Positions 1 to 62,307 of a DNA stretch of 64,000 nt are shown one piece after another. The position numbers and the translations under genes were made by a program. Source of the stretch: Aestuariivirga sp. (GTDB lineage: Bacteria > Pseudomonadota > Alphaproteobacteria > Rhizobiales > Aestuariivirgaceae); the NCBI RefSeq assembly GCF_047600585.1, contig NZ_JASGKP010000001.1, positions 3,213,823 to 3,277,822 on the forward strand. The letters are read 5' to 3'. The notes below the pieces were generated by a model, which did no database searches, was not told where the DNA came from, and saw nothing but the letters and a program-made list of their open reading frames with translations. The first letter of the stretch is position 1. Each line of letters begins with the position of its first letter.

Positions 1-41
1 CTCGGGATTTCGCATTATTCAATCGGCAATGGAAAACACGG

Positions 42-461
42 ATGGCAAATCAAAGTATGCTTATGGCTGTCGCCGCGGCCTGTTCGGGTGACTTGGAGAA
101 TGATGGATCTTCGACCACTTCAGCAGATGTTAAGAGACGTGAGCTGGAGAAGGAGACAGGTCCGGTCACGGTACAGCAGCTGAAGGAACGTTATCCGGCT
201 GCTGCCGCAGCACTTATCGCTGAAGGAAAGGCAGCTGCCCGCATGGAGCAAGAGATATTGGAGCGCCTGCTGAAAGAGAACCAATCAGCCGGCGCCGCGC
301 AGGTGGCTGCGCCAGCCGTCTGTTGGAAAACTGGTGTCGACAAGCACAAGGAAGAGTGGGCGACCGATGCCAATCTGCGGAAGGAATTTTCCAGCGAGGC
401 TGCCTATCTCTGCTTCCGTAAGATGCAAGATGAAGGAAGAGTAAGGATTCTCAGCCGTTAA
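42..461 (+). CDS. Hypothetical protein resembling the C-terminal scaffolding (Nu3-like) region of lambdoid head protease/scaffold proteins
   Basis: 139-aa ORF followed by a terminator. Segments TVQQLKERYPAAAAALIAEG and EEWATDANLRKEFSSEAAYLCFRKMQDEGRVRIL recall phage S49/scaffold C-termini (from memory, not searched). Confidence 0.45.
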   Translation: MANQSMLMAVAAACSGDLENDGSSTTSADVKRRELEKETGPVTVQQLKERYPAAAAALIAEGKAAARMEQEILERLLKENQSAGAAQVAAPAVCWKTGVDKHKEEWATDANLRKEFSSEAAYLCFRKMQDEGRVRILSR

Positions 462-488
462 TCGGGCAATGTTTCCTGCCGTTGCTGC

Positions 489-523
489 AGCCTCTTCCCG
501 ATAAAGGGGAGAGGCTTTCTTTT
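489..523 (+). terminator. Rho-independent terminator after ORF 42-461
   Basis: AGCCTCTTCCC-gataaa-GGGGAGAGGCT followed by TTCTTTT. Confidence 0.7.
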
Positions 524-543
524 GCGAGTGTTGGTGGTTCCCA

Positions 544-632
544 GGGGCATAGGTTCTTCCTGCCAAATCCGCCTTCGCGGGTAGTTCGGACTATGCTCCC
601 GCTCCAGTTCGAGCGTTATCTGAGAGCCTAAA
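544..632 (+). repeat. Conserved 89-bp motif, copy 1 (putative phage packaging/cos-like site)
   Basis: GGGGCATAGGTTCTTCC-N15-CGCGGGTAGTTCGGAC-N8-CGCTCCAGT-N17-GCCTAAA; identical blocks and spacing recur at 8522-8610. Confidence 0.7.
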
Positions 633-664
633 CATGTGATGCGGTTTGGCGTCGCAGATGGAAT

Positions 665-1915
665 TCAATTCCCCTCATCTCTTGGGCGCATAAGCCTATG
701 AAAACTGCGTTGAGGTCGCAGTTGGAGAATATCGTCTGGCTCGATACCGGAAGCGCTCCTCCGACGGCTTCCGCGGGGTGTAATCACCTGAAGATCAGGA
801 CTCCTCATGATTGCTGCGCGAATGTCGTCACTGTGAGCGGGGGTCTCCCCGTAAATTACCCGGCGGAAATCGGCAACGCCAATAGTGTCCCCATAGCGAG
901 AGACCAAGCGGGGTATATCATCTGTGAGTTGATCAAGAGCCGATGCCCTGCCGACGTCGTCGAAAAGATACAGCTTTCCTTCTTCTGGCTTTTCATAAGT
1001 CAGCATCTTCAAACCTGATCTACCAAAATGAGCCTGCAAGGAAGCGTTGGCGTGCAGGATATCGTTGTAGACCTCGCGTGCTCTAGGGCTCTGCGCAAAA
1101 TGGAGCAGCCAGTAACTCCATCCTTTGTTCTTGTGCACAGAGAATGGGCTGACATACGGAGCACAACCATGAAAGACTTCAAATACAAGTCTCTCCGCCA
1201 GACCCAACCATAGCTGGTTAGTTAGGGTTGATTCACTCAGTCTCCTAATGTCGAAGTCCGGACCGAGAAAGGCGGTTTGCGCAGCCAGTTTTTTCGCGTC
1301 GCGTTTGTCCAGAAAAGCCAGAAACGAGTCGATCGAGAAGTTGTAGAACATCTCGATGTTCTTGAACGCATCAATGATGTCTCGAATGCTCTCTACCTGC
1401 ACTTGGCTATGGCCGCACTGATCCAGTATGAACAGGACATTTTCGAAGCCGTAGTGTTTAAGGCTGGTAATGAGGTAGGGGCAGATCTCCTCGAACTTTT
1501 TATCGTGGTACTTCACAGTCAGGTCGAGTTGGTCTCTGATTTCCTCCGCCTCAAGCAATAGGGGCGCTAGATTCTCTCGGAGAATTTGAATGGCAACAGA
1601 GTCTGCATCGTTGCAGATCATGAGACATTCGATGTGAAGCTCTGAGAATCCGTTGGCCTTCCTCACCAGATTGAGTGTTCGGGCTGCATTGACCAGCTCT
1701 TCGACAAAAATGAGTGGCGACCCCGGAGTGCCGTCTTTATATCGACCTGCTCCAGAAAATCCTTCGACTATGGCCAGCTTGAATTTCGATTGCCGTGGAT
1801 GTTGGCATCGGATGGAGATGTACTCCCGGAAATACTGCCGGAGGATCGTTAGCTTTGCCTTGGATTCTTCGCCAAGAACGGCGCCTCCGGACCAATCATA
1901 ATCGACCCGGACCAT
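665..1915 (-). CDS. tcmP: Three-Cys-motif partner protein TcmP (SAM-methyltransferase-like fold, C-terminal wHTH-like region)
   Basis: N-terminal SKAKLTILRQYFREY, EGFSGAGRY motif and FILDQCG motif; directly downstream of a DUF5131 gene. Confidence 0.85.
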   Translation of the reverse strand: MVRVDYDWSGGAVLGEESKAKLTILRQYFREYISIRCQHPRQSKFKLAIVEGFSGAGRYKDGTPGSPLIFVEELVNAARTLNLVRKANGFSELHIECLMICNDADSVAIQILRENLAPLLLEAEEIRDQLDLTVKYHDKKFEEICPYLITSLKHYGFENVLFILDQCGHSQVQVESIRDIIDAFKNIEMFYNFSIDSFLAFLDKRDAKKLAAQTAFLGPDFDIRRLSESTLTNQLWLGLAERLVFEVFHGCAPYVSPFSVHKNKGWSYWLLHFAQSPRAREVYNDILHANASLQAHFGRSGLKMLTYEKPEEGKLYLFDDVGRASALDQLTDDIPRLVSRYGDTIGVADFRRVIYGETPAHSDDIRAAIMRSPDLQVITPRGSRRRSASGIEPDDILQLRPQRSFHRLMRPRDEGN

Positions 1916-1924
1916 GGAATTATC

Positions 1925-2701
1925 TCACGGCGCCGCGTGCGACCCGGGCATCTCGTCCCAGGTCCGGCCACGGTATTCTCGTCCGTTTGCTTTCTTCGAT
2001 CGCTTTTTGTTGTCCTTGCCCCAAGTTCCCCACTGTTTGAAGAAGAATGCAGTGCCAGCATCAGTGCACTGGTTATAAATCTCATCGATCCACTCTTCGC
2101 GGATCGGACGCGCCTGGCGGCCACTCTCTCCACCGACTATTGCCCAGTGAATGCCGTGCAGATCGATTTCGCCGACCGGCCCGATCAGTGGCTCAAACGA
2201 GATGAAGCGAATTTTGGCCCTGACGTGCCGGATCGCATCGGCGCGGTCGACATGTTCTGCATTTTCAATGCTCGTGCCGAGCCATACATTTTCCAGTGGC
2301 GGGCCGAGACGATTGACAACCTCGGCCATTCGTTCAGGGCGCTTCGTCAAAATTTGGTAGTGGTGACGCGGTGTGCGCTCCATCACGTCCCACACTTCTC
2401 GTATGAATGCCTCCGAAACTCGTTCGTGGAACAGATCGCTCATGGAGTTCACAAAGATTTTGCGAGGCTTTTTCCATCTGTCTGGGATGCCGAGCGCACC
2501 GCGATCTTCCCTGACCACCCCATTCCAAACCGCTCTATTGCCGCTCCTGCGGACAAGGCCGCGATACTTGGGTATCCCCATGGCCTGCAGACGCTTTGCC
2601 ATCTCCATGGCGTAGCAGTTTGTGCAGCCAGCACTGACTATCGAGCAGCCAGCGACTGGGTTCCAAGTGGAGTCGGTCCACTCAATCTGTGTCTCGGCCA
2701 T
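1925..2701 (-). CDS. DUF5131 / phage Gp37-Gp68 family three-Cys (radical-SAM-like) protein
   Basis: IEWTDSTWNPVAGCSIVSAGCTNCYA, IFVNSMSDLFH, QILTKRPER, FISFEPL, WAIVGGESG, FFFKQWG, LRGRTWDEMP-like end: all hallmark motifs. Confidence 0.93.
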   Translation of the reverse strand: MAETQIEWTDSTWNPVAGCSIVSAGCTNCYAMEMAKRLQAMGIPKYRGLVRRSGNRAVWNGVVREDRGALGIPDRWKKPRKIFVNSMSDLFHERVSEAFIREVWDVMERTPRHHYQILTKRPERMAEVVNRLGPPLENVWLGTSIENAEHVDRADAIRHVRAKIRFISFEPLIGPVGEIDLHGIHWAIVGGESGRQARPIREEWIDEIYNQCTDAGTAFFFKQWGTWGKDNKKRSKKANGREYRGRTWDEMPGSHAAP

Positions 2702-2764
2702 GGCGCCTCCTACGTTGAGAATATCATCTTCTGGAGTTTTCGCCAGCTATTGGAGGTTTCCGGT

Positions 2765-2784
2765 TTCATGGAAAATTCCATGAA
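2765..2784. promoter_or_regulatory. Palindromic operator in the divergent DUF5131/HTH intergenic region
   Basis: Perfect 9-bp inverted repeat TTCATGGAA-AA-TTCCATGAA. Confidence 0.55.
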
Positions 2785-2867
2785 TAATCCAATTTGCTCC
2801 GGCGACCTCTGTGCGGCCATCTGGGGCGAGCGATCCCCAAGGAACGCGCTCCACAGAGGAAGCCTAA

Positions 2868-3095
2868 ATGCATACAAAGATCACTCCCTTTCCGGCGCCT
2901 TCGCTACTGAACGAGCACCAGGCAGCCGAGGTTCTCAATCTCACTGTCTCCTCCCTCCGCAACTGGCGTCTCCGTGGGGACGGACCTACCTTCATCAAGG
3001 CCGGCAGGTTGGTCCGCTATCGCCCGTCCGATCTGGACGACTGGGTCAACAGGCGCGCGTTTGCCAGCACCTCCCAGATGGGACGGTCCGCGTGA
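2868..3095 (+). CDS. AlpA/excisionase-like helix-turn-helix protein
   Basis: LLNEHQAAEVLNLTVSSLRNWRLRGDGPTFIKAGRLVRYRPSDLDDW is a typical MerR-like/AlpA HTH. Confidence 0.9.
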   Translation: MHTKITPFPAPSLLNEHQAAEVLNLTVSSLRNWRLRGDGPTFIKAGRLVRYRPSDLDDWVNRRAFASTSQMGRSA

Positions 3096-3544
3096 GGACG
3101 CCAGCCAAACGAGAGAGACACGGCCCCGGCGCGCGGGACATCCTGAGCGCCGAATTTCGCAAGCAGCAGCGTCCTCGCCTTCGGGTTCAGGAGATGCGTC
3201 AGCTCATCGAGCTTGGCGCCACCGCTCGGGCTTTCCACCGCGCCTTGGTCACCGGTTTCTGTACGCCTGGTGCATTCGATCTGCGGAAGGCCATTCGGCC
3301 GTTGTCCCGTCCGAATTTCGGAGAAGGGCCTGTCCTGACGTTCCAGAGCTACCTCGACAGACGAGCGTGCGAGCTCGTGCCGAGAGATATGGACACGGAG
3401 AACCTTGCCCTCCGGGTCGCCTTCGGAGAGCCGCTGCTTCTGCAGGAACAGCTGCATCTCATTCGGGCGGCCGGGATTGCTGAGCAGTCCAGGATGGCGG
3501 CAGCGAGGATATCTCCGGCCAAGGTCAAACGGAGGCCGAAATGA
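3092..3544 (+). CDS. Hypothetical satellite protein
   Basis: GTG start overlapping the HTH stop (GTGA); stop overlaps the next ATG (ATGA). It is the C-terminal part of track ORF 1937-3544. Confidence 0.6.
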   Translation: MRTPAKRERHGPGARDILSAEFRKQQRPRLRVQEMRQLIELGATARAFHRALVTGFCTPGAFDLRKAIRPLSRPNFGEGPVLTFQSYLDRRACELVPRDMDTENLALRVAFGEPLLLQEQLHLIRAAGIAEQSRMAAARISPAKVKRRPK

Positions 3545-4359
3545 AGCTCATCGCAAAAGCGAAGCAGGCTCCCGAAGGAGCCTGCCCGGCGTCTGAGGCG
3601 CCTCGAATCCACTCGGCAGGCTTTACTGCCCGGATCAGCTGCAGTGCCAAGACACGCGAGTTTCCTGGTGCCTGCCGGCGTTCTTGCCAGAAACGCAATC
3701 GACCGCGGATTTGGGCACGGCCGACGTCTTCGAAACTGCAGTGTGCGTGGATGCGTGTCGAGAGAGATTTATGCATGCAGAACAGCAACCATAAAGCGAA
3801 ACAGGCCCCCGAAGGAGCCTGCCCGATGCATGGTTTCCGTTTCACTTCCTCGAGCAGCTGGGTGCCCCATGAACGTGAAATCGAACCGGCGGTGGTTCGC
3901 CGTTCCGTGCCATCTCGCACTTGGCTGCACCTTGTGCGGCGAAACCGGTCCTTGGAGAAGCCGGGATTCGCGACGGCAAATATGCAGGCCATTTGGCAGA
4001 GTGTCGAGACTTCTAGGCCCGTGGACAGCAGACAGCAGGCCCTCGGAAGGGCCCGCTTGACGATGGGGGCAAATCAGAACATGTTGTCAGCGGGCTTAGA
4101 AACCCTGACAACGATAGAGCTGGAAGCGGTTGGCGCCGCATTCGAGCTGACGCGAGCAACCTTCACGGTTGCCGCAGCGAAGCGCCTTGGCGGGCGCTCC
4201 ACACCCGTCCTTTATGGCCGGGGGAGAGCGCTATGTCCAGAGCTCACGCTTAAAACCGCTCTGCCTGTCTCGTTGCAGGTTTCTAACCCCCGGCTTCCAG
4301 GTCCGCCACCTGGAGCAACGGGCCTTAGAAAGCCCTTCGACAACGAGGACTCCCCATGA
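3541..4359 (+). CDS. Uncertain hypothetical ORF; internal start at 3775 possible, and the 3' part overlaps a regulatory RNA region
   Basis: ATGA overlaps at both ends; contains the duplicated peptide KAKQAPEGACP. The 3' third coincides with a promoter-like site and structured RNA, so the coding extent is doubtful. Confidence 0.35.
   Translation: MKLIAKAKQAPEGACPASEAPRIHSAGFTARISCSAKTREFPGACRRSCQKRNRPRIWARPTSSKLQCAWMRVERDLCMQNSNHKAKQAPEGACPMHGFRFTSSSSWVPHEREIEPAVVRRSVPSRTWLHLVRRNRSLEKPGFATANMQAIWQSVETSRPVDSRQQALGRARLTMGANQNMLSAGLETLTTIELEAVGAAFELTRATFTVAAAKRLGGRSTPVLYGRGRALCPELTLKTALPVSLQVSNPRLPGPPPGATGLRKPFDNEDSP
3556..3825 (+). repeat. Two 33-nt direct repeats (3556-3588, 3793-3825), each containing a hairpin
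   Basis: AAAGCGAAGCAGGCTCCCGAAGGAGCCTGCCCG vs AAAGCGAAACAGGCCCCCGAAGGAGCCTGCCCG (31/33 identical); stem CAGGCTCC-CGAA-GGAGCCTG. Confidence 0.85.
4212..4313 (+). ncRNA. C4/CI-like antisense RNA (phage P1 C4 / P4 CI type immunity switch)
   Basis: Starts TTATGGCCGGGG. GCCGGGGG(4217-4224) pairs with CCCCCGGC(4287-4294), AGAGCG with CGCTCT, and there is a terminal hairpin CCAGGT-CCGCC-ACCTGG. The segment TCGTTG-CA-GGTTTCTAA (4270-4286) is complementary to sites at 4096-4114 and 4325-4346. Confidence 0.65.
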
Positions 4360-4685
4360 ATATCTCCCGCCGCGACTTTGTCGCCGGCTGCGGTGCACTC
4401 ACCGTAGCTTCCGTTCCCGCCCATGCAGACGAACCGGAAATCTCCGAATTCGTCACGCGTGTCGAATCCTGCGGTATGACGATTTTTGCGACCACGCTCG
4501 AAGGAGTGCCGGCGCTTCATCTCCACATTGATCTCACGGTCGAGTCGCCAGATTTGGAGGTCGACCGCGATGAAGTCTTCGAGCAGCTGGCCGCATGGAA
4601 GAAGCTCTCCGACTGGCAAAAGCGTCGACAGAGGATCATCCACTATCTCGTCACCACCGGCCGCAGTTATGGGGTGACGGTATGA
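4356..4685 (+). CDS. Small hypothetical protein with a twin-arginine-like signal peptide
   Basis: RBS GAGGA at 4345-4349; N-terminus MNISRRDFVAGCGALTVASVPAHA (SRRxF, hydrophobic stretch, AxA). Confidence 0.7.
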   Translation: MNISRRDFVAGCGALTVASVPAHADEPEISEFVTRVESCGMTIFATTLEGVPALHLHIDLTVESPDLEVDRDEVFEQLAAWKKLSDWQKRRQRIIHYLVTTGRSYGVTV

Positions 4686-4861
4686 AGCGCCTCACCCGTC
4701 GACGGACCTGGGCGAGCTTCCAGCAGAGAGAGAGGCGCGGACTTGTCCGCGCCTTCAGTCTCCGCCTCCCCCGAAAATTTCAAGCGAACAGGTGTTATTC
4801 AACTGCATCTCATCTCCCGGTGCACCGTCCTGCTCCTCACGATCCGCGGGGTGCAAAATGA
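4682..4861 (+). CDS. Small basic hypothetical protein
   Basis: ATGA overlaps with both neighbours (MKRLTRRRTW...). Confidence 0.5.
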   Translation: MKRLTRRRTWASFQQRERRGLVRAFSLRLPRKFQANRCYSTASHLPVHRPAPHDPRGAK

Positions 4862-5169
4862 AGCCGTCGCGCAAAATCGATTTCGCCCGGATCAATGCCC
4901 GAGCGCTCGCAAGTGCAGACTCCATCCTCGTCCGATGGCTGCCAGACGGCCGCCGCGAAGGCACTGAATGGGTAGCCCTGAACCCGCGGCGCAGCGACAA
5001 GCGCCGGGGATCCTTCAAGGTCAACCTCCACACCGGGAAGTGGGGTGACTTCGCTGCCGGCGCGAGTGGTGGTGATCTCGTCTCGCTCGCGGCCTACCTC
5101 TTCGACCTCGGCCAAGGAGAGGCGGCCCTCAAGGTGTCGGACATGTTGGGAGTGGACCCACATGTCTGA
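4858..5169 (+). CDS. Primase N-terminal (zinc-binding-domain-like) protein, stand-alone
   Basis: WLPDGRREGTEWVALNPRRSDKRRGSFKVNLHTGKWGDFAAGASGGDLVSLAAYL is typical of satellite/phage primase N-domains. Confidence 0.75.
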   Translation: MKPSRKIDFARINARALASADSILVRWLPDGRREGTEWVALNPRRSDKRRGSFKVNLHTGKWGDFAAGASGGDLVSLAAYLFDLGQGEAALKVSDMLGVDPHV

Positions 5170-7342
5170 CCCCTTCGCTCCGATCCATACCGCCGATGAC
5201 CCTCCGCGTTCTAAGGCGAAGCAGGATACCTGGGAGGTCATCTCACCAGTTCCTGACGAAGCTCCCGCTCCTCCCGCTGAGCACTACTCACGAGGCAAGC
5301 CGTCCCGCAGCTGGCAGTACCTGGATGCCACAGGGAAGCTCCTCGGCTTCGTGTGGCGCTTCGACACTGAGGAAGGTGAAAAGGAGTTCCTGCCGCTCAC
5401 CTACTGCCGCAAGGCAGACGGATCGGGCGCCAGCTGGAGGTTCAAGTCCTGGACCGCGCCGCGCCCGCTCTACGGGCTCAGGAAGCTCGCTGTCTCTCCG
5501 TTCCCGGCGGTTCTAGTCTGTGAGGGTGAAAAAGCTGCAGACGCGGCCCAGAGGCTCCTGCCGGACCTTGTAACGGTCACCAGCCCGGGAGGGTCAAAGG
5601 CGGCCACAAAGGCAGACTGGAGCTCGCTGGCCGGGCGGGACGTGGCCATCTGGCCAGATAACGATGCTGCCGGCAAAGACTATGCGGAACAAGTTGCCCG
5701 CTTCGCCCGAAAGGCCAAGGCCATTTCGGTGGTGGTAATCACGCCGCCGGCCGGCGTTGCACAAGGTTGGGATGCGGCCGACGCGGAAGCGGAGGGTTTC
5801 AGCCCGGACCACCTGAAGGCACTGATCGATGGCGCCAAGGTTCTCAATCGCGAGTCTTCAGACGCCGCCGATGAAAAGCCCGAAGATGACGAGCCCAAGC
5901 GGCGGAGGCCCCGCCAGTCGACCGAGACTATTGATCTCCTCGACAGCCTTGATGTCGAGTTTTGGATTGATCAGGACGGTGAAGCCTTCGCAAGTGTTCC
6001 CGTGAATGGCCACTTCGAGAACAGGTCACTCAGATCGAAGGAGTTCAAGAGATGGCTCGCTGGCCAGCAATACCGCGCCACCGGTGGCGCCATCAGCTCA
6101 CAGGTGCTAGAGGACAGCCTTCGCGTGCTGGAAGCGCGAGCCTCGATCGATGGCCAGCAGTACGACACCTGGCGCCGTGTCGGGGAACACAGCGGGAAGA
6201 TCTACATCGACCTTGGCGATGCCTCCTGGCGAGCCGTCGAAGTGACGTCGCTCGGATGGAAGGTCATCAGCAATCCGCCCTGCAAGTTCATCCGCGGTAG
6301 CGCAATCCGCGCACTGCCGGAGCCCCTTATGGGCGGCTCAGTGGATGCTCTGAGGGGGTTCTTCAATTTTGAGAGTGACGATGAGTTCCAGCTGTTGGTC
6401 ATGTGGACCGTTCAGGCGCTCCGATCAAAAGGACCCTACCCGGTTCTTTGCATCAATGGCGAGCAAGGCTCTGGCAAAAGCATCCTGACGCAGGTGCTGC
6501 GATCGCTGACCGATCCGAACGGCGCTCCACTACGCGCTGCGCCCGGCGACGATCGGGACCTCTTTGTGATGGCAAACAACGCATGGGTCCTTGCCCTCGA
6601 CAATCTCTCCAGCATTTCCGAATGGCTGAGCGACGCACTGTGCCGGGTTTCAACTGGTGGCGGCTTTTCCACCCGTACCCTGCACAGCGACAAGGACGAG
6701 ACATTCTTCTATCTGCAGAGGCCGATCATCCTCAATGGCATTCCCTCACTCACGAACCGGCCGGATCTAGCAGATCGATCGGTGTCCCTCTTCCTCAAGG
6801 CAATGCCGGCCGGCAGACGGAGAGCGGAAGAAGAGTTCTGGAAGGACTTTGACAAGGCCGCGCCCGAGATCCTCGGGGCTCTGCTTGACGGTGTCTCGGC
6901 CGGCCTTCGCAATGTCGACAAGGTCAAGATTGCGGAAGTTCCCCGCATGGCAGATTTTACAAAGTGGATGTTGGCAACCGAGCCTGGCCTTGGTTTCAAG
7001 GAGGGATCCACCTTCGCAGCCTACCAAGAGAACCGTCGAGAGATCTCCGAGACGACTTATGAGGCCGATCCAGTCGCGGTGGCGATCGCCAACCTTGCCA
7101 AGCACAAGGGCAGTTTGGATTGTGGTGTCTCCGAGCTACTGACTATGCTCAACGATGCCTCTCCCGAAGCGCTACGCAAGTCCAGGAGCTGGCCCGCGAG
7201 CCCAACCGGTCTCGGCTCGAAGATCCGGCGAGTCGCTCAAGTCCTCCGCGATCAAGGATTCCTGATCGATTTCGGTCACTCCGGGAAGCGCTTCGTGCGG
7301 ATCATTGCGCCGGCTGAATTGGAGCTCCAGGCTGGGAGGTAG
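5162..7342 (+). CDS. Toprim primase - P-loop helicase fusion (satellite replication protein)
   Basis: Toprim VLVCEGEKAADA...IWPDNDAAG; Walker A NGEQGSGKS; ALDNLS; IILNGI; RPDLADRS. Start ATG 5162 overlaps the upstream ORF. Confidence 0.88.
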   Translation: MSDPFAPIHTADDPPRSKAKQDTWEVISPVPDEAPAPPAEHYSRGKPSRSWQYLDATGKLLGFVWRFDTEEGEKEFLPLTYCRKADGSGASWRFKSWTAPRPLYGLRKLAVSPFPAVLVCEGEKAADAAQRLLPDLVTVTSPGGSKAATKADWSSLAGRDVAIWPDNDAAGKDYAEQVARFARKAKAISVVVITPPAGVAQGWDAADAEAEGFSPDHLKALIDGAKVLNRESSDAADEKPEDDEPKRRRPRQSTETIDLLDSLDVEFWIDQDGEAFASVPVNGHFENRSLRSKEFKRWLAGQQYRATGGAISSQVLEDSLRVLEARASIDGQQYDTWRRVGEHSGKIYIDLGDASWRAVEVTSLGWKVISNPPCKFIRGSAIRALPEPLMGGSVDALRGFFNFESDDEFQLLVMWTVQALRSKGPYPVLCINGEQGSGKSILTQVLRSLTDPNGAPLRAAPGDDRDLFVMANNAWVLALDNLSSISEWLSDALCRVSTGGGFSTRTLHSDKDETFFYLQRPIILNGIPSLTNRPDLADRSVSLFLKAMPAGRRRAEEEFWKDFDKAAPEILGALLDGVSAGLRNVDKVKIAEVPRMADFTKWMLATEPGLGFKEGSTFAAYQENRREISETTYEADPVAVAIANLAKHKGSLDCGVSELLTMLNDASPEALRKSRSWPASPTGLGSKIRRVAQVLRDQGFLIDFGHSGKRFVRIIAPAELELQAGR

Positions 7343-7420
7343 GGGAAAATTAATCTTTTGGTAAGATTCTGTTCCAGCTTGGGGAATTCTCATCGCATTT
7401 CCCTGGAACGGTGCGTGGGG

Positions 7421-7477
7421 TTGACGAGTTCAACATGTATCACTAAGGTCTGTTTTTAATCAACAAAAACAGACCTT
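7421..7477 (+). promoter_or_regulatory. Sigma70-like promoter overlapped by a 13-bp inverted-repeat operator
   Basis: TTGACG-N17-TAAGGT (7421-7449); AAGGTCTGTTTTT-AATCAAC-AAAAACAGACCTT (7445-7477). Confidence 0.65.
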
Positions 7478-7496
7478 TATTTCAGGGAAGCGCGTC

Positions 7497-7691
7497 ATGA
7501 CGAATCTGAAGACGAATGATCAGCTGCTGAGGAAAATGAGGTCAGCTGCATCGAAAAGCCTCACCGCCGAAGAGCTCCGCCAACAGAAAATCTCTTTCAT
7601 CATGGCCAATTTTGATGAAGAGAGTTCGGTTACTCGCGATTACGTGGGTGCCGTCCTGGACAAGCAGGATGGCCGCAAGTCGGCAGCGTAA
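7497..7691 (+). CDS. Small protein upstream of Fic (putative antitoxin/partner)
   Basis: 64 aa, RBS AGGGAAG; its stop TAA directly abuts the GTG start of the Fic gene. Confidence 0.65.
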   Translation: MTNLKTNDQLLRKMRSAASKSLTAEELRQQKISFIMANFDEESSVTRDYVGAVLDKQDGRKSAA

Positions 7692-8417
7692 GTGATAATC
7701 TTCGAGATCACCGGCAGGGAGGACAGTCCCGCGTACCGGGATCTCGAAGTATCTAATGGCGAGAGGCAATTCGACTTCCTCCGATCAACGGTGGCAGCCT
7801 CACTCGCGTTGAAGCGCCCTTTTATTTCCCAGCATCTTTTGAAGGCCTTGAATTTCCATGCGATCGCCTGTTTGCACACCAGTGCAGGCGAGTTCCGTCC
7901 CTGCGAGGTGACAGTCGGCGCGTACAGGCCTCCGTCTCCTCACCGCGTCCAGGCTCAGATGGATGACTTCATCAATCAGGTCAACAGAGCCTGGGAGACG
8001 GCAGATCCTGTTTTCCTCGCGTGCTATGTACTGTGGCGTCTCAACTACATTCACCCGTTCATCAATGGCAATGGGCGGACCGCCCGCGCCGCCTGTCTGT
8101 TCGTGCTTTGTGTGAAGGCCGGTGGCTGGTTGTCCGGTGAACCTATCCTACCAGATCTTCTGAAGCGAGAACGAGCCAACTATGTCGCCGCCCTTCAAGT
8201 CGCTGACCGAACTTTCGAAGCTACGGGAGATGCCGATCTCAGGCTCCTACATGGCCTCGTCGCCAGTCTGCTTTATGAGCAGCTCAACGGCGTAAGGGAT
8301 GAGCCTCAAGTCGATGAGCCTGCTGCCGCAGCTCCTGTCGTGGAGAATAACATCGATCCGGAAGAGATCCGCCCGCGGCGGGAACCCGACGACAATGACG
8401 CTGCTGTCCAAGAATAA
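7692..8417 (+). CDS. Fic/Fido domain protein
   Basis: Motif HPFINGNGRTAR; acidic C-terminal tail. Confidence 0.9.
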   Translation: MIIFEITGREDSPAYRDLEVSNGERQFDFLRSTVAASLALKRPFISQHLLKALNFHAIACLHTSAGEFRPCEVTVGAYRPPSPHRVQAQMDDFINQVNRAWETADPVFLACYVLWRLNYIHPFINGNGRTARAACLFVLCVKAGGWLSGEPILPDLLKRERANYVAALQVADRTFEATGDADLRLLHGLVASLLYEQLNGVRDEPQVDEPAAAAPVVENNIDPEEIRPRREPDDNDAAVQE

Positions 8418-8521
8418 GACTACTGCCTTTACCCCGCTCCCCCGCGCCTCTCTCTGCGCCAAGCGGCGGTCACTGCAAGCGCAAGAGCTGGTAAGGCGAC
8501 TTGAGCCACGCTTTGACCGGG

Positions 8522-8610
8522 GGGGCATAGGTTCTTCCGGGCCACTTGCGGTACGCGGGTAGTTCGGACCGTGTACACGCTCCAGTCTCAGGGAATGGCC
8601 TCAGCCTAAA
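8522..8610 (+). repeat. Conserved 89-bp motif, copy 2 (putative packaging/cos-like site)
   Basis: Same four blocks and identical spacer lengths as 544-632, with unrelated spacer sequences; followed by further CCTAAA/CCTA repeats. Confidence 0.7.
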
Positions 8611-8764
8611 GTCCTAAAGAGCCTACTGCAGGTTGCCGAATACCCATTGTTTGCATGGCTCATGCGGTGGCTGCAGGGCGATCGGTTCGGCCGTTCCAGG
8701 ATCTCGAGTGCGAAGGATTCCGCTTTTTTTAGTGGTCGGCGCCAGGCCGTGCCCCGAGCCAATT

Positions 8765-8960
8765 TGGACACCTTGCCGGCGCCGTCGCTGCACTCCGCGA
8801 AAAACTCAGCGCGGGGTTTCGGGCCGCAGTTGGACACCTGTGGGCACCTGTGGACACTTTGCGAAATTCAAAAGATGCCCATTTTTTGATGGTTTCGGAC
8901 ACCTTGGACGCCTTGGACACCTTCTTTTTTTTAATAGGATAAATATTGAAAGAGAAAGAG
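8765..8960 (+). repeat. Iteron-like array (TGGACACCT consensus, 7 copies) plus AT-rich tract: putative replication origin
   Basis: One copy at 8765; three in tandem at 8831/8841/8851 (10-nt period); three at 8896/8905/8914 (9-nt period); followed by TCTTTTTTTTAATAGGATAAATATTGAAAG. Confidence 0.7.
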
Positions 8961-9076
8961 TACGAGAGTGTTCGATTACTCTGTAGGCTGCTTCCCCGAT
9001 GCTTCTCCGTTTAAGCGGGCGCGAGAACACCGAAGATGGAACAGCCTCTATATTATTGAATTTGAAAGGGAAAAGA

Positions 9077-9153
9077 TGGTACAGCCTCCCAGGCTTGAAC
9101 TGGGGACCCCCAGATCCACAATCTGGTGCTCTAACCAACTGAGCTAAGGCTGC
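9077..9153 (-). tRNA. tRNA-His (GTG), lacking encoded G-1, with A73
   Basis: GCAGCCTTAGCTCAGTTGGTTAGAGCACCAGATTGTGGATCTGGGGGTCCCCAGTTCAAGCCTGGGAGGCTGTACCA; anticodon loop TT-GTG-GA; CCA encoded. Confidence 0.97.
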
Positions 9154-9977: not shown

Positions 9978-12590
9978 ATGAGCACCCTTCGCCCCCGCAC
10001 CCTTGAGGACCTCCGGCAGGACGCAAGCCCCGCCTGGCTGTGGGATGCCGCGCGCGGGCGGATCGTCTGGGCCAATGCCGCGGGGGTTGCGGCCCTGGGC
10101 GGCGAGAGCGTCTTCGATCTGGTGGACCGTCCCTTCGACCCCCTCGACCCCGCCGTGCAAGAGATCCGCGAACAGGTGGCAGGGCTCCAGCCCGGCCAGG
10201 TCCGGCAGACCCGCCTCCCGCTCCCCGATGGCGATACGGAAGCGCCCGTCCAGTGCAGCCTTCATCTTCTGGCCGATGGCCGGCAGGGGCTGCTTGTCGT
10301 GGCCGAGCCTGCCCCCAAGAAAATTTCGGCAATCGTGGGTGACGTGGCGCAATCGACGCTCCTTCACCTGCCCGTCGCCGTGCTGATCCTCGATGCCGCC
10401 GGCACGATCGTGAACGGCAATGCCGCCGCAGGCGAGATGCTGGACCTGTCCGTCCCACGCAAGCTTTCCGAGCTTGCCGCCCCGGAGAAGACGGAAGCCC
10501 TGTTCGCCGGATTGAAACGCGCCAATGTCGGCAGCGCCATCCTCGCCATGGCCTGCAAGCTCGGCGCGCGTGAAGTGCGCGTCACGCTCTCGCGCCTGCC
10601 GGGGCAGGAGCTGTTGAGCGCCATCCTTGAAGACGTGACCGACCGCCGCGCCCTCGAGCGGAGCCTGCAAGGGCAACCCGCCACGGCCCCCGCCGCAACT
10701 CCGGCGCAGGATGCCTTCGCCCAGCTTGCGAAGTCGCTTCAGGATACGATCGAACGGCAATCGGCCGCGCGCACCCAGAAGGATGCGGAACCGGTTGCCG
10801 AAGCGGCCCCCAAGCCCGCATCTCCGCCCCGCCCGCCGAAGCCAGCACCTGAAGCAGCACCTCCGGCAGCAACACTTGCTCCGTCCACGGACAATTCTTC
10901 CAAGGGTGGCGGCACAGCGGCGCCCCCGTCCGGCAGGAAGGCCGCGCCCTTCGTGCCCGAACCCGTGCGCCAGTCCTTCGAGCGGACCGGTGAGGCGATC
11001 ATGATCGGCCGCGGTGATGCCCCGCTCTTCGCAACATCGAAGGCGGCGGCCCTGCTCGGCTATGACTCGACTGCAAGCCTCATGTCCGACACCGGCCTCT
11101 GGCAACATTTCAAGGCCGTGGCGCAAGCGCCGAAGCGCACCAGCCTGCCGCTTGCAGGCGGCGAGAGCATCGACATCGACGTGAGCCACGGCTGCGTGCC
11201 TTGGGTGAACGGCCCTGCCGAGCAGATCGTCATCCGGCGGAGCGTGACGCCATACGTGAAGCCGGAACCGGCCAAGCCCGCACCGGCGCCTGTTGTCGTT
11301 GCAACACCACCGCCCGCACCTGTGCCGGTGCCGCCGCCCACGCCCGTTGCACCACCTGCTCCTGTGGTGGCCGCCGAACCGCCGCCACCGCCTCCTCCGG
11401 CGCCTGCGCCCACGGTCACGGCTGCGCCGCAGCCCGAGCCTGCGCCAACGCTTGCAGTCAGCCAGCAGGTGATGGAAACGACCGAGCTCAAGGCCATGCT
11501 CGACGTGGCCTCGGACGGCATCATCGCCCTTGATGACGAGGGCCGCATCCTCAGCTTCAGCGCCGGCGCCGAGGCGATCTTCGGCATGAGTCAGGACGAA
11601 GTCGTGGGCCGGCCCTTCGCCGAACTGCTCAGTTCCGACGGCCGCAAGCCCTGGCGCGATTATCTCGCAGCACTCCGCGGCCCCGGTCTCGCCAGCGTCT
11701 TCAATGACGGGCGCGAATTCACCGCCATCGTCAAGCAGGGCGGCACGGTTCCGCTCTTCGTCACGCTGGGCAAGCTGCAATCGCCGCACTCGCAGGCGAG
11801 CTTCTGCGCCGTTGTGCGCGACATCACCCAGTGGAAGCGCACCGAGCAGGAGCTGCGCGAGGCGAAGGAAGCCGCCGAAAGCGCGAGCCGCCAGAAGTCG
11901 GAATTTCTCGCCGGCATCAGCCACGAGATCCGTACGCCGCTCAATGCCATTCTCGGCTTCTCCGATGTCATGCGCCTGGAGCGCTTCGGCGAACTGAAGA
12001 ACGACAAGTACCGCGCCTATGCCAACGACATTCACGCCAGCGGCACCCATCTGCTCGCACTGGTGAACGATCTGCTCGATCTGTCAAAGGTGGAGTCGGG
12101 CAAGCTCGAGCTTGATTTCACCGCCGTCAATGTCGTCGACGCCGCCGAACACGTGCTGCGTCTGATGAGCGAAGAGGCGGCGCGCGCCAATGTGGTGGTG
12201 CGCAAGTCGTTTTCTCCGTCCCTGCCCCGCGTCGTCGCCGATCTCCGGGCGCTCCGTCAGGTGCTGCTCAATCTCGTCTCGAACGCCATCAAGTACACCG
12301 ATGCGGGCGGGCAGGTGATCGTCTCCGCCCTGATGGAAGAGACGGGTGAAGTGGTGCTGCGGGTGAAGGACAGCGGCATCGGCATGGACGCCACGCAGTT
12401 GCAGGAAGCGCTCCGCCCTTATGTGCGGGTGGAATCGGTTGCCCGCGAACGGCAGGGCACGGGCCTTGGCCTGCCGCTCTCCAAGGCGCTGGTGGAAGCG
12501 AACCGCGCCCAGTTCACGATCGCCAGCGAGCCCGGCCAGGGCACGCTTGCGGAAGTGCGTTTCCCCGCCACCCGCGTACTCGCGGAATAA
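9978..12590 (+). CDS. pdhS: PAS-domain cytoplasmic histidine kinase, PdhS/DivJ/PleC-like
   Basis: Multiple PAS domains, Pro-rich linker, H-box ISHEIRTPLNAILGFS, N/G boxes NLVSNAIKYT, DSGIGM, GTGLGL; no TM segment. The symbol is tentative. Confidence 0.75.
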   Translation: MSTLRPRTLEDLRQDASPAWLWDAARGRIVWANAAGVAALGGESVFDLVDRPFDPLDPAVQEIREQVAGLQPGQVRQTRLPLPDGDTEAPVQCSLHLLADGRQGLLVVAEPAPKKISAIVGDVAQSTLLHLPVAVLILDAAGTIVNGNAAAGEMLDLSVPRKLSELAAPEKTEALFAGLKRANVGSAILAMACKLGAREVRVTLSRLPGQELLSAILEDVTDRRALERSLQGQPATAPAATPAQDAFAQLAKSLQDTIERQSAARTQKDAEPVAEAAPKPASPPRPPKPAPEAAPPAATLAPSTDNSSKGGGTAAPPSGRKAAPFVPEPVRQSFERTGEAIMIGRGDAPLFATSKAAALLGYDSTASLMSDTGLWQHFKAVAQAPKRTSLPLAGGESIDIDVSHGCVPWVNGPAEQIVIRRSVTPYVKPEPAKPAPAPVVVATPPPAPVPVPPPTPVAPPAPVVAAEPPPPPPPAPAPTVTAAPQPEPAPTLAVSQQVMETTELKAMLDVASDGIIALDDEGRILSFSAGAEAIFGMSQDEVVGRPFAELLSSDGRKPWRDYLAALRGPGLASVFNDGREFTAIVKQGGTVPLFVTLGKLQSPHSQASFCAVVRDITQWKRTEQELREAKEAAESASRQKSEFLAGISHEIRTPLNAILGFSDVMRLERFGELKNDKYRAYANDIHASGTHLLALVNDLLDLSKVESGKLELDFTAVNVVDAAEHVLRLMSEEAARANVVVRKSFSPSLPRVVADLRALRQVLLNLVSNAIKYTDAGGQVIVSALMEETGEVVLRVKDSGIGMDATQLQEALRPYVRVESVARERQGTGLGLPLSKALVEANRAQFTIASEPGQGTLAEVRFPATRVLAE

Positions 12591-12605
12591 GAGGCCCGGA
12601 CGGCG

Positions 12606-14266
12606 GTGGCAGCATCGGAAGCCATGTCGGGTGACGGCCCGAAGCTTGCGCTGACGCCGCTGCAGGCCGCAGCTCTCATTCTCTCGCTGCCGCTTTTCCT
12701 GCCGCTCGCCGCAATCATCGTCCTCGCCGCCACGGCCGATGGCAGCGGCTGGCCCGCCCTTCTCTCCACCGTTCTCCCCTCCATGCTGATGCAGACGCTG
12801 CTGCTCGCAGCAGGAGTAGCAGCCCTCACCCTCGTGGTGGGCGCGGTCATGGCCTGGCTCGTTACCTTTTATTCCTTCCCGGGGCGAAACCTGATGAAGT
12901 GGTCGGCGATCCTGCCGCTCGCCGTGCCGGGCTACATCACCGCCTTCGCCTATGTGGACTACTTCTCCTATTCCGGCCCCTTCCAGACGGAGGTGCGGAA
13001 GCTGATGGGCTGGCAGACGCCGGCGGAAAGCTGGATTCCCGAAATCCGCTCGCTGGGCGGCGCCATCTTCGTGCTCGCCTTCTCGCTTTACCCGTATGTC
13101 TACATGTCGGCGCGCGCCGCCTTCATGCGCCAACCCATGTCGCAGCTCGATGTGGCGCGCACGCTCGGCCGCACGCCCTGGCAGGCCTTCCTGCAGATCG
13201 TGCTGCCGCAGGCACGGCCTGCCTTCGCGGTGGGCGCCTCGCTCGTTGTCATGGAGGTGATGAACGACATCGGTGCGGTGCAGTTCTTCGGCGTCAACAC
13301 CCTTACCTATGGCATCTATTCCACCTGGCTCGGGCAGGGTGACTTCGGAACCGCGGTGCAGCTCGCCTTCGTGCTGCTCGCCGGGATTGCCGTCCTCATC
13401 GGCTTCGAGCAGGTGATGCGGAGCCGCGACACGCTCTCCCGCGGCGGGCGCACCCACTCGCCCATCCAGCGCCGCAAGCTCAGGGGCCTGCGCGCGATTG
13501 CCGCCTTCCTCGCGCTCTTCATCCCCATCGGCTTCGGCTTCCTCGTGCCGCTGTTCCTGCTGCTGCACTATGGCTGGCGCCGCTTCGCCGATCTTCCCAA
13601 CACGGCCTTCTTCTCGGCCATGGCGAACTCGCTACTGCTCGCCGTCCTCGCCTGTGCGGGAACGCTGCTGCTAGCGCTGCTCTTCGGCCATGCCACCCGC
13701 AACAGCGAAAGCCCGCTCCTCTCCCGCATCACCCGCTTTGCGAGCTTCGGCTACGCGCTTCCGGGAACGGTGCTGGCGATCGGCATCATCGTGCCCTTCG
13801 GCTTCCTCGATGCCCGCATCAATGACGCCACCAAGGCGATGTTCGACGTGATGCCCGGTCTCATCCTCTCGGGCAGCATGGTGGCGCTGGTCTTCGCCTA
13901 TGTGACGCGCTTCCTCGTCATCGCCACGGGCACGGTCAATGCCGGCTTCGAGAAGATCTCGCCCCATCTCGACCAGGTGGCGCGCACGCTCGGGCGCAGG
14001 CCCTTCGCCGTGTTCCGCGAAATCCACCTGCCGCTGCTTCGCCCCTCGCTGGTGACGGCGATGCTGCTTGTCTTCGTCGATGCGCTGAAGGAACTGCCGG
14101 CCACACTGCTGCTCCGGCCCTTCGACTTCGACACGCTGGCCACTTACGTCTTCACCAGCGCCTCGCTCGGGCAACTGGAGGAAGCGGCCCTGCCCGCGCT
14201 CTCGATTGCGGCGGCAGGCCTCATTCCGGTCTTCATCCTCTCGCGCAATCTCCGGGATGCGGGGAA

Positions 14267-30033: not shown

Positions 30034-30403
30034 GATGTTCCTGCGGGGTGGGAAGATTGGGAGGAAAGCGGGTGAACTCAGCTTGGTGCTACCCCATGCA
30101 ACTTGCCGGGAACTTGCAAAACATGAGGGAATCCTCACATAACTCGCGCATCAATGATGTCATGTCATCGTTCGATTGCTGTCCCTTTTTCTAGAAGGAC
30201 AACGGAATTGCAGCTGGTTCACTGACAAAAATGCAGTGATTTCATTCGCTGCGTGAATAATCATTCAAAATCTTCCGTATACTGAGCATACCACGGGCAA
30301 GTGGCACATTTGCTGTCCTGACGAACAAATGAGTCACAGGGCATCCGGACTGAGTCCTGGAGGAAAATCAGGCCATGGGTGAGTGCAGGATCGGAAAAGC
30401 GGC

Positions 30404-30478
30404 TGGTGCTGCCAGAGAGGATCGAACTCTCGACCTCACCCTTACCAAGGGTGTGCTCTACCACTGAGCTACGGCAGC
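30404..30478 (-). tRNA. tRNA-Thr (GGT)
   Basis: GCTGCCGTAGCTCAGTGGTAGAGCACACCCTTGGTAAGGGTGAGGTCGAGAGTTCGATCCTCTCTGGCAGCACCA. Confidence 0.97.
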
Positions 30479-30602
30479 TTTTTCGCCAGGGAACCGGGGC
30501 AAGCCAAGTTCGCGCGCGCTCCATGCCACAGCCGCACCCCAAGTGCAACCCGCCCTTTTCAGAACGTTGACAGGCGCATTTCCGGGCGCAGAATGGCCCG
30601 CC

Positions 30603-30761
30603 ATGAGCAAGGTGATTGACATAGGTCAGCCCAAAACCGCCAAAGAGGTGCAAAAGTCGGCCCGCAAGGACCGCCTGGCGCGGGCGCTCAAGGCCAACAT
30701 CAAGCGCCGCAAGGAGGCGCAGGGGCAAACGGGGGAGACAAGCGATGGGCGAAAAGACTGA
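30603..30761 (+). CDS. Small conserved basic protein upstream of murA
   Basis: RKDRLARALKANIKRRK resembles the short protein commonly preceding murA in alphaproteobacteria (from memory). Confidence 0.6.
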   Translation: MSKVIDIGQPKTAKEVQKSARKDRLARALKANIKRRKEAQGQTGETSDGRKD

Positions 30762-31077
30762 AAAGGCCGCCGCGGCGGCAAGCGAGGGGCTCAATATCCT
30801 CAGCCTGATCTTCACCGGCCTTGCCATCCTGGGCTTCCTGGGCGGCTTCGGGGTGTTCCTGTATGAGGTCTTCGGATTGGTCAGCGGAAACGGCTGGAAC
30901 ACGCTGCAGCTCAGCGACCTGTTGTTCTGGCTCCTTGGCCCGCCCCCGGCCGAAGCCGAGATGTCCACCGGCACGAAAATCCTCGCCGTCCTGTCGCTTG
31001 CCCCCTTGGACCTCGGCCTTGTGGCTTTGGGCTGGATTTTCAGCAAGATCGGCAACCTGTTCGAGTCGGCGAGCTGA
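30745..31077 (+). CDS. Hypothetical membrane protein
   Basis: 110 aa with 2-3 hydrophobic helices; overlaps the upstream ORF; host-like codon usage. Confidence 0.65.
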   Translation: MGEKTEKAAAAASEGLNILSLIFTGLAILGFLGGFGVFLYEVFGLVSGNGWNTLQLSDLLFWLLGPPPAEAEMSTGTKILAVLSLAPLDLGLVALGWIFSKIGNLFESAS

Positions 31078-62175: not shown

Positions 62176-62307
62176 CGGCCTTATGTATCAAGCGCACCAA
62201 TTCAAAAGCTTGAAAAAAGTCTAAAGGTGGCGTCCCGGCGTGTGAGTGGGATTTTGGCGCAGAGACGCCACCCATCCCATTGGCCCATAGGATGGTGACT
62301 TTTTATC

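Follow-up and report, generated by a model that had tools for sequence, protein, structure and literature searches.

The question raised by the first 9 kb of this stretch of the Aestuariivirga sp. genome (64,000 nucleotides in all, referred to here as the window) is what kind of mobile element lies next to its tRNA-His gene. An initial annotation, made from the sequence, had proposed a phage satellite. Positions 1-9076 are read here, with good though not full confidence, as the tRNA-proximal part of an integrative cos-type phage satellite, belonging to a family in Hyphomicrobiales-type Alphaproteobacteria. At the level of the sequence, this proposal is supported by two sites that match phage cos (packaging) sites, by a homologue of a phage scaffold gene placed in phages like that of lambda, and by the absence of structural genes from 1-9076, together with the gene content, the layout at tRNA genes and the covariation of a small RNA with its targets. 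The family core was found to consist of a left attachment site (attL), a distal P4-type tyrosine integrase, regulators, an AlpA-like helix-turn-helix (HTH) gene, the p150 gene and a split primase/helicase, followed on the tRNA side by a single or double cos site, repeats of the arm or iteron type and the tRNA gene. All of these are present in one complete relative, L253 (related loci and phage contigs are referred to by L numbers, proteins by P numbers).

The tRNA-His(GTG) gene was identified with ARAGORN and Rfam at 9077-9153 on the minus strand and represents the attachment site on the attR side. Its 3' (CCA) end faces and abuts the island, as the initial annotation had stated. The GC content of 1-9076 is 57.4%, compared to 65% across the rest of the window, and the low GC content persists up to the left window edge, so that the island runs off that edge. 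In Pfam and PHROG scans, no capsid, tail or terminase genes were detected in 1-9076, which confirms the corresponding claim. The small open reading frames (ORFs) are tightly coupled, also as described before: the stop codon of the HTH gene overlaps the start of p150, p103 overlaps the following 726-amino-acid ORF via ATGTCTGA, and orf64 directly abuts the Fic gene. A non-coding, repeat-rich stretch of 660 nt separates the Fic gene from tRNA-His.

The longest repeat of the region is a 65-nt direct repeat at 544-608 and 8522-8586, with 77% identity, here designated the D1 motif; the complete motif spans roughly 90 nt. When IMG/VR was searched for its two conserved blocks, TAGGTTCTTCC-N-CGGGTARTTCGGAC, two phage contigs were identified that both carry the motif upstream of a small HTH gene, at a distance of about 40 nt from its start codon. 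The gene order after the motif is small HTH protein (terS), GpA-type large terminase (TerL), head-tail joining protein, lambda-family portal and a protease-capsid fusion; hmmscan assigned these genes to phrog_57 (terS), PF05876/PF20454 (TerL), phrog_5774, PF05136 (portal) and PF05065. The exact 15-mer ACGGGTAATTCGGAC is present in 56 viral stretches of IMG/VR; in 42 of the 56 the motif is complete and, with few exceptions, flanked by a phrog_1924 gene and terL. Its conservation extends to phages with a TerL identity of no more than 24-30%.

The nature of the motif was indicated by the ends of phage contigs. Five of them (L170, L193, L203, L204 and L212) end exactly after ...TTCGGAC, and L235 does likewise with a G variant; within CGGGTA(A/G)TTCGGAC, the terminal positions are 1-15 in L170, L204, L212 and L235, 13992-14006 in L193 and 14225-14239 in L203. 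The six contigs represent four phage lineages from six samples, and related contigs read through that position. Since an identical end in independent assemblies is the mark of a physical DNA terminus, the motif is taken from these shared contig ends to be the cos site of those phages. As in lambda-type cos sites, the phage sites are located upstream of terS and at a physical genome end.

For the island, a cos profile was built from 25 phage sites and no island sites. In the 64-kb window, this phage-only hidden Markov model (HMM) identified two places only, 8521-8596 (E 3.7e-8) and 542-628 (E 1e-6). The same model found sites in the relatives L002, L003, L009 and L253, and a diverged site upstream of the gene in terS position in the Sinorhizobium phage phi2LM21, the TerL of which is 48% identical. 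The left site, D1-L (542-628, plus strand), has a predicted cut after 591 and CCTAAA at +35, while the right site, D1-R (8521-8615, plus strand), has a predicted cut after 8569 and is followed by CCTAAAG repeats. Both retain the invariant blocks and align with phage cos regions, D1-L with those of L165 and L166 as far as the start codon of terS; the G variant in the core of D1-R is also present in phages L228, L235 and L246. On this sequence homology to phage cos, the island copies are considered to be putative packaging sites. Two putative packaging sites had been claimed by the initial annotation, and the cos-like sites at 542-628 and at 8521-8596 may or may not be the ones originally meant. 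The possibility that D1 encodes a structured RNA was rejected, as neither strand gave a convincing consensus fold.

Two types of site can be distinguished by their downstream repeats. Type 1 sites carry CCTWAR at +35 and include both window copies, the first copies in L002 and L003 (L002a, L003a) and phages L165 and L166. Type 2 sites, namely those of L002b, L003b and phage L168, have GGTTGAC at +35 and again at +43-45 and/or +64-70, which amounts to three GGTTGAC copies in L002b and L168 and two in L003b. These arrays are located where the TerS-binding sites (cosB) would be expected, and they may represent such sites. In L002, L003 and L253 the primase gene is immediately followed by two copies of the motif, spaced by about 115 bp, and a weaker copy is present in L009, where two D1-like motifs follow the primase gene together with five TTGGACGGC repeats (12280-12680). 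The tandem sites of L002 (8944-9153), L003 (7583-7789) and L253 (7721-7889) are of different type; each type matches another phage group, so that such an element may be able to use two kinds of helper.

The arrangement in the window differs from that of the relatives. The predicted cuts at 591 and 8569 lie 7,978 bp apart and bracket the region from TcmP through Fic, with the arm repeats and the attachment site outside. No arm repeats, tRNA fragment or integrase were found beside the left cos copy, which runs into the 3' end of the TcmP gene. The scaffold-like orf170 occupies the same slot relative to the left copy as Fic does relative to the right one, and the simplest reading is therefore that two satellites stood in tandem and lost their junction by deletion, or that the element is composite. 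With two cos sites 7,978 bp apart and neither integrase nor attL in the window, the copy studied here is probably of this kind.

A second link to phage morphogenesis is provided by orf170 (<1-461, plus strand), which begins 51 nt to the left of the window, with 139 codons visible from position 42; the full protein, P0121, comprises 170 amino acids. No match to it was found in PHROGs, Pfam, PDB sequences or cultured phages. A full HMMER scan revealed 14 relatives with a common C-terminal motif. In P0132, a ClpP-family protease encoded in a GpA-portal-capsid module, a C-terminal extension aligns with residues 72-170 of orf170 (BLASTP 1e-8). P0125 resembles orf170 over its whole length and is encoded between the S49 protease and the major capsid genes, in a module with the order terS, GpA, W, lambda portal, S49, P0125, a 254-amino-acid gene and a Mu-gpT-like capsid gene. 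This slot between protease and capsid is that of the scaffold gene Nu3 in lambda, which supports the initial description of the ORF as scaffold-like. In the window, orf170 is followed by an intrinsic terminator-like hairpin (489-516, plus strand; an 11-bp stem and then TTCTTTTG) and the cos-like site, and no capsid gene is present. A gene for Peptidase_S49, the family of the lambda gpC protease, was also observed upstream of the primase module in L019 (7458-8648), a capsid-less 11-kb island at tRNA-Lys with 48-nt repeats and a P4-type integrase.

The borders of the family were derived from its relatives. In L002, with a primase 64% identical to that of the window, the element is located at the same tRNA-His, in the same orientation and with the same kind of histidine-kinase gene beside the tRNA; in L010, too, a related element occupies this tRNA-His with the same kinase gene as its neighbour. 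The five-gene layout recurs in L003, at a tRNA-Arg. The complete element L253 (primase 65% identical) comprises 8,228 bp on an 8.4-kb contig and is bordered by an exact 52-nt repeat of the 3' part of tRNA-Arg at 76-127 and 8304-8355. Its left part consists of attL, two copies of TGCTTCCCC, three of GGTGTCCAA, the integrase, two minus-strand genes, an HTH_3 gene and a 357-amino-acid gene, and its right part of HTH_17, p146, p100, primase, two D1 motifs, four copies of TTGGACACC, two of TGCTTCCCC and tRNA-Arg. The integrase contains Arm-DNA-bind_3 and Phage_integrase domains and lies at the end distal to the tRNA; no structural genes were found in the 8.2 kb. In L007 (tRNA-Gly), L019 (tRNA-Lys) and L053 (tRNA-Arg), tRNA repeats of 45-48 nt and a P4-type integrase distal to the tRNA were likewise identified.

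The expectation that the integrase would be found at the far end therefore holds for L253, L007, L019 and L053, while for the window copy, which runs off the left edge, no integrase was detected anywhere in the 64 kb. In L253, a distance of about 3 kb (2.8 kb) separates the integrase from the HTH gene downstream of it; the corresponding place in the window is taken by TcmP/DUF5131. A direct repeat of the tRNA-His 3' end had also been expected; no copy of at least 13 nt, and no 24-mer with up to three mismatches, was found in the window, and positions 1-8700 contain no left-arm repeats, integrase or tRNA repeat. The alternative that the unit forms part of a tandem array gained some ground, as it fits the second cos copy at 542-628. 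In L002 and L003, a gene upstream of the HTH gene encodes a 405-amino-acid protein, which was considered as a novel integrase and rejected; it has no family match, its homologue in L253 lies inside the element with a normal integrase at the border, and the protein encoded at this position in L009 is not related to it.

Near the tRNA of the window, TTGGACACC-type repeats (8763-8924) are followed by an AT-rich stretch and two copies of TGCTTCYCC (8989-9009), all on the plus strand. Both repeat types are conserved in L002 and L003, and analogous TTGGACGGC repeats are present in L009. In L253 the same two types occur on both sides of the attachment core, with one set inverted, and this is the pattern of integrase arm-type sites in attP. 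The repeats, described initially as iterons, are thus real and conserved, and they may be integrase arm-type sites and/or iterons of a replication origin.

For the control of the element, the initial annotation had suggested an antisense-RNA switch, and its components could be located in the stretch following p150. A promoter-like block (4056-4090), invariant between the window and L252, is followed by target site 1, GGGCTTAGAAACC, at 4092-4104; an RNA resembling C4 and P4 CI is encoded at 4216-4303, with the seed GGTTTCTAACCCC at 4278-4290; and target site 2, GGGCCTTAGAAAGCCC, at 4320-4335 is located just 5' of the ribosome-binding site of orf109, all on the plus strand. The RNA is predicted to fold with -37.4 kcal/mol (z -2.2) into a closing stem with two hairpins, and its single-stranded 3' segment GGTTTCTAACCCC pairs with GGGCTTAGAAACC at 4092 and with GGCCTTAGAAAGCC at 4321. 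Rfam matches were obtained to sRNA-Xcc1 (RF02221, 31.8 bits against a gathering score of 53) and to C4 (RF01695, 20.4 against 45).

Additional support came from L252, whose primase is 88% and whose RNA region is 82% identical. Here, the seed is GGTCGCTAACCCC, site 1 is TTAGCGACC and site 2 is TTAGCGAGCC; compared to the window, TT is changed to CG in the seed and AA to CG in both target sites, a three-way compensatory change. The complementarity of the seed to sites on both sides of the RNA gene was found to be maintained in evolution. The cognate duplexes were calculated at -24.6 (site 1) and -20.8 (site 2) kcal/mol for the window and at -30.8 and -27.9 kcal/mol for L252. At site 1, the cognate pairs were more stable than either crossed pair, and at site 2 they surpassed the combination of the L252 RNA with the window target; the exception is the window RNA on site 2 of L252, which at -27.9 kcal/mol equals the cognate L252 pair through a part of the RNA outside the seed. 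In L009, a C4 RNA at the head of the same operon scores 51.8 bits, above the gathering score; in this island, located at tRNA-Thr, the RNA (6485-6566) is flanked on both sides by CCCACAGG target sites. By analogy to the known RNAs of this type, the window RNA most likely keeps the replication operon off.

The operon under this putative control contains the replication module. p103 (4858-5169, plus strand) represents a detached N-terminal primase domain, and the ORF at 5162-7342 (plus strand) encodes a 726-amino-acid Toprim primase fused to a D5/SF3-type helicase, with matches to Toprim_2, DUF6371, NF005477 and phrog_239. The two proteins cover consecutive parts (positions 15-110 and 132-316) of the single-protein model NF005477. 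p103 was found with 60-91% identity in more than 30 related loci, always as a separate ORF, and the two-ORF arrangement, mostly with overlapping stop and start codons, recurs in these loci; it is therefore a conserved split and not a frameshift. More than 1,180 homologues of the 726-amino-acid protein were identified, several of which were named from Xanthobacteraceae, Beijerinckiaceae and Bradyrhizobium. An AlphaFold2 model of this protein, based on 18 homologues, had a mean pLDDT of 81.5, and Foldseek matched it to AsfvPrimPol, the helicase region of phage NrS-1, the primase-helicase of Staphylococcus aureus pathogenicity island (SaPI) SaPI5 (7OLA) and MPXV E5; E-values ranged from 1e-9 to 2e-8 for the first three, with 2e-8 and a template modelling (TM) score of 0.56 on the target for 7OLA. 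Because the match to NF005477 is split and the predicted fold agrees with D5/SF3 proteins, the initial label of a split primase-helicase is justified. In L085, a viral contig with a relative of the primase module, an int-alpA RNA (RF02996, 37.4 bits) was observed at 2640-2713.

From these components, the following course of events can be proposed. In the quiescent state, the small RNA from the leader of the replication operon would pair with the two flanking sites on the same transcript, and this pairing would shut off orf109, p103 and the primase gene, as is the case for C4 in P1 and the CI RNA in P4. Growth of a lambda-like helper with TerS, GpA terminase and lambda-family portal would lead to derepression of the element, which would then be excised by the integrase and AlpA and replicated by its own primase-helicase. 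The terminase of the helper would recognise the copy of its cos region on the element, so that element DNA would be delivered into capsids made by the helper, and the Nu3-like homologue orf170 may shrink these capsids or bias their assembly in another way. TcmP-DUF5131 and Fic would travel as cargo, probably with an anti-phage or toxin-type function. A candidate helper prophage would carry ...GCGGGTAGTTCGGAC ahead of terS, the GpA terL gene and the lambda portal gene. The initial proposal of a lambdoid helper holds in the sense of this lambda-like packaging and head module (TerS, GpA TerL, lambda-family portal) and in that sense alone.

Several observations weigh against the satellite reading. 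The window lacks integrase, attL and left-arm repeats, and no integrase was found within 3-4 kb upstream in L002 and L003. A helper prophage is likewise absent from the 64 kb. The two Rfam scores of the antisense RNA fall below the gathering thresholds. It is not obvious that an element cut into two arcs by two cos sites would work. The primase module also has relatives in contigs that resemble real prophages (L085, L087 and L088), and the module alone is therefore no marker of a satellite. Finally, orf170 is located at the left window edge, beyond which structural genes are possible.

As a rival explanation, regarded as somewhat unlikely, the region could be a tandem array that has fused, or a remnant that has decayed or become immobile. 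According to this explanation, the integrase, attL and arm sites were lost by a deletion near 628-665, and the region derives from one or two satellites of the family and is now a fixed defence-type island. It would account for the missing integrase, tRNA repeat and left-arm repeats in 1-8700, for the left cos copy that passes straight into the 3' end of TcmP, and for the presence of TcmP/DUF5131 in the integrase slot upstream of the HTH gene; the complete L253 comprises only 8.2 kb. However, every core ORF is intact with its coupling preserved, the RNA and its targets are intact and complementary, and the invariant blocks are kept in both cos-like sites; moreover, the low GC content reaches the window edge, so that an integrase may lie further to the left.

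Two further explanations would remove the satellite character altogether. The island could be a helper-independent integrative element, that is a mobilisable or replicative island, in which D1 is a regulatory site shared with phages, for example a late promoter or activator box. Integrase, AlpA and primase alone are an ambiguous signature ("Type C PICI", PMC10085698; PICI, phage-inducible chromosomal island), and the position of the motif directly upstream of the first late gene, terS, is a possible place for a promoter. Yet the six phage contigs end at one base, as a DNA end would predict and a promoter would not, and the likeness extends in register over the downstream repeat arrays, as it would for cosB-type sites. 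The island also carries the scaffold homologue, and no relaxase, oriT-type or conjugation gene was found among the ORF family matches of 1-9076 (Pfam, NCBIfam, PHROG); this explanation is considered decidedly improbable. It is very improbable that the region is the right end of an ordinary or defective prophage, with head, tail and terminase genes to the left of the window and orf170 as its scaffold gene. The location of a phage scaffold homologue at the very edge of the window would agree with this, as would the relatives of the primase module in contigs with ORFs that appear, by eye, tape-measure-like or terminase-like (L015, L085, L087, L088). But the phage order is cos, terS, terL, portal, protease, scaffold and capsid, whereas the window has scaffold homologue, terminator, cos-like site and cargo without a capsid gene; furthermore, the closest complete relative, L253, contains no structural genes, and L002 and L003 share the same small layout.

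If the island is a satellite, the question arises to which known system it compares. With P4, the island and its relatives share the location at a tRNA 3' end, an AlpA-type regulator and a primase whose C-terminal part is predicted to have a D5/SF3-type helicase fold, and relatives (L253, L007, L019, L053) also have an integrase with a P4-type Arm-DNA-binding domain. Like P4, the island carries a copy of a phage-type cos rather than its own terminase, together with defence-type cargo, and the elements are likewise about 8-11 kb in size. A further likeness is the proposed immunity by RNA, in which a small RNA from the leader of the replication operon would pair with sites on both sides. In P4, the immunity RNA is processed from the leader and pairs with the repeated sites seqA, seqB and seqC. 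Of the core by which SatelliteFinder recognises P4-like elements (int, psu, delta, sid, alpA, epsilon, alpha), no homologues of psu, delta, sid or epsilon were found among the ORFs of 1-9076 (Pfam, NCBIfam, PHROG). While the alpha-type protein of P4-like elements combines primase, D5_N and SF3 helicase in a single chain, the island primase is of the Toprim/DUF6371 type, split into two ORFs and without a D5_N Pfam match; the predicted helper type is lambda-like (GpA terminase, lambda portal), whereas that of P4 is P2-like; and the candidate capsid factor is a homologue of an internal scaffold of the Nu3 type, whereas Sid of P4 is an external scaffold. P4-like elements have mainly been described in enterobacteria (De Sousa et al. 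2023, PMC10085698), whereas the host of the island is an alphaproteobacterium.

The Gram-negative cos-type PICIs (such as EcCICFT073) and the SaPIs have in common with the island the trio of integrase, AlpA and primase-replicase (the integrase being present in relatives) and the lack of tail and lysis genes; helper-dependent packaging, a trait of these islands, is predicted here. The predicted fold of the 726-amino-acid protein matches the SaPI5 primase-helicase, as described above. SaPIs change capsid size via the scaffold-like CpmB. Unlike in PICIs, the hijack genes terS, ppi, rpp and cpmA/B were not detected in the island and the Nu3-like orf170 is the only morphogenesis-related gene; the integrase of the family is distal to the tRNA, and control in the window copy appears to be exerted by an antisense RNA instead of an Stl-type repressor. 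Capsid-forming PICIs (cfPICIs) differ in that no capsid, portal, terL or head-tail connector genes of its own were found in 1-9076 or in the complete L253. By gene content, the island is neither P4-like nor a Type A or B PICI nor a cfPICI. By the logic of SatelliteFinder, it would at best be an ambiguous "Type C"; elements with integrase, AlpA and primase are placed there, may be other mobile elements, and undescribed families are expected (PMC10085698).

The PICMIs (minimalist chromosomal islands inducible by phages) of Vibrionaceae (PMC10803314) have a similarly minimal gene set, with five to ten genes in L002, L003 and L253. Obvious capsid-remodelling genes are likewise lacking in most members, while the window copy has a scaffold homologue. 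A multimer packaging like that of PICMIs is plausible; 5 x 7,978 bp is near the 39.5-kb contig of a phage with the same cos variant, though this is numerology and not a test. Hosts, helpers and core genes differ, and PICMIs need virulent phages and are not defined by cos mimicry of the present kind.

The RNA shares with C4 of P1/P7 and with sRNA-Xcc1 the closing stem, the two internal hairpins and a single-stranded 3' seed, and also complementary sites that flank the RNA gene on both sides, of which the downstream one is located beside the ribosome-binding site of the first regulated gene. The layout found here is that of C4 in P1/P7 and of the CI RNA in P4. In contrast to C4, the regulated genes are those of a Tat-signal protein and the primase operon, and not icd-ant. 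RNAs of the C4/sRNA-Xcc1 type are borne by islands or prophages, and matches to C4, isrK and sRNA-Xcc1 have been reported side by side in Xylella islands (PMC12189769). Taken from the sequence, the cos mimicry, the leader-RNA immunity and the P4-type integrase at a tRNA would make the island functionally closest to P4. Satellites have been reported in marine Alphaproteobacteria (PMC9618062); in the literature searched, no description of this satellite family or of its cos signature was found.

The remaining genes of the island comprise regulators, small core genes and cargo. The AlpA-like HTH_17 regulator or excisionase is encoded at 2868-3095 (plus strand) and matches PF12728 (9.6e-10) and phrog_66, "excisionase and transcriptional regulator", in agreement with the initial assignment; it is 61-64% identical to its counterparts in L002, L003 and L253. 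p150 (3092-3544, plus strand), translationally coupled to it, is a conserved core protein without an assigned function; no family match was obtained in library scans, while tblastn revealed 47-59% identity to the ORFs at the same position in L002, L003 and L253. A large protein search returned no homologues for p150, not even the protein of the window itself, though these three loci encode relatives; the ORF may be uncalled in the source annotation, or the opposite strand (3017-3457) may have been called. The 810-nt stretch after p150 is non-coding by codon-position GC, and on this ground ORFs such as 3541-4359 and 3017-3457 (minus strand) were rejected as genes. It contains two 33-nt GC-rich hairpin repeats, family D5, at 3556-3588 and 3793-3825 (plus strand), which might act in termination or processing; the window contains no further copies, and one copy is kept in L252. 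An interpretation as packaging sites or as genome-wide repetitive extragenic palindromic (REP) elements was discarded, as they are confined to a single spot in the window and have no exact match in viral contigs.

The first gene downstream of the RNA, orf109 (4356-4685, plus strand), encodes a small protein with a signal peptide of the twin-arginine translocation (Tat) type (TIGR01409, 0.0011); it has a coding-like GC pattern and two paralogues in L252. A 59-codon ORF at 4682-4861 overlaps the stop codon of orf109 and the start codon of p103, in each case through ATGA; since its codon-position GC lacks a coding-like pattern, it may not be a gene.

Two cargo modules had been noted initially and were both recovered. 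At 665-2701, TcmP (three-Cys-motif partner protein; 665-1915, minus strand; TIGR04474 1.3e-59; PADLOC PDC-M30A) is encoded with its partner DUF5131 (Gp37/Gp68-type; 1925-2701, minus strand; PF07505 7.8e-102; PADLOC PDC-M41B and PDC-M30B); the two correspond to the candidate pairs PDC-M30 and PDC-M41 in PADLOC, and no tested function of TcmP-DUF5131 was found in the literature searched. At 7497-8417, the small orf64 (7497-7691, plus strand), recognised from its position and coding-like GC pattern and without a family match, is a possible antitoxin or regulator and abuts the gene for a Fic-domain protein (7692-8417, plus strand), which contains the HPFINGNGRTAR motif and matches PF02661 (4.4e-18) and PADLOC SoFic (2.5e-16).

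Elsewhere in the window, the GC content drops to 51-57% at 62200-64000, where an ORF (61371-62213) seems to be cut off near 62.2 kb and is followed by the low-GC ORFs 62308-62736 (plus strand) and 62705-63400 (minus strand, with a lysine-rich tail); the right window edge is probably occupied by another inserted element. A GC dip to 57.6% was observed at 30000-31000 around tRNA-Thr(GGT) (30404-30478, minus strand).

As a tentative extension of the satellite reading, held with rather less than even confidence, the elements are proposed to form a new cos-satellite family of soil and rhizosphere Alphaproteobacteria, which would combine P4-style RNA immunity, a split primase-helicase, an internal-scaffold mimic to redirect capsids, and the tandem cos of two specificities present in L002, L003 and L253. 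If this is true, two kinds of helper could package a single element of 5-8 kb, or packaging could proceed from a circular monomer. The tandem cos of two types makes a widening of the helper range directly testable, and the RNA switch with its matched target changes is a ready system for studying the specificity of satellite immunity. The cos signature, GGKTCYTYCC-N15-19-CGGGTARTTCGGAC with the cut after GGAC, applies to a broad group of phages with GpA terminase and is usable for finding both helpers and satellites by sequence, while new anti-phage genes may be sought in the variable slots, one located between primase and cos and the other upstream of the HTH gene. The satellite families known so far come mainly from Enterobacterales, Firmicutes, Vibrio and marine plankton. 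The primase family alone counts more than 1,180 members in public data. With a family in Hyphomicrobiales-type bacteria, a group that includes rhizobia and many soil bacteria, satellite biology would reach a large clade of agricultural relevance.

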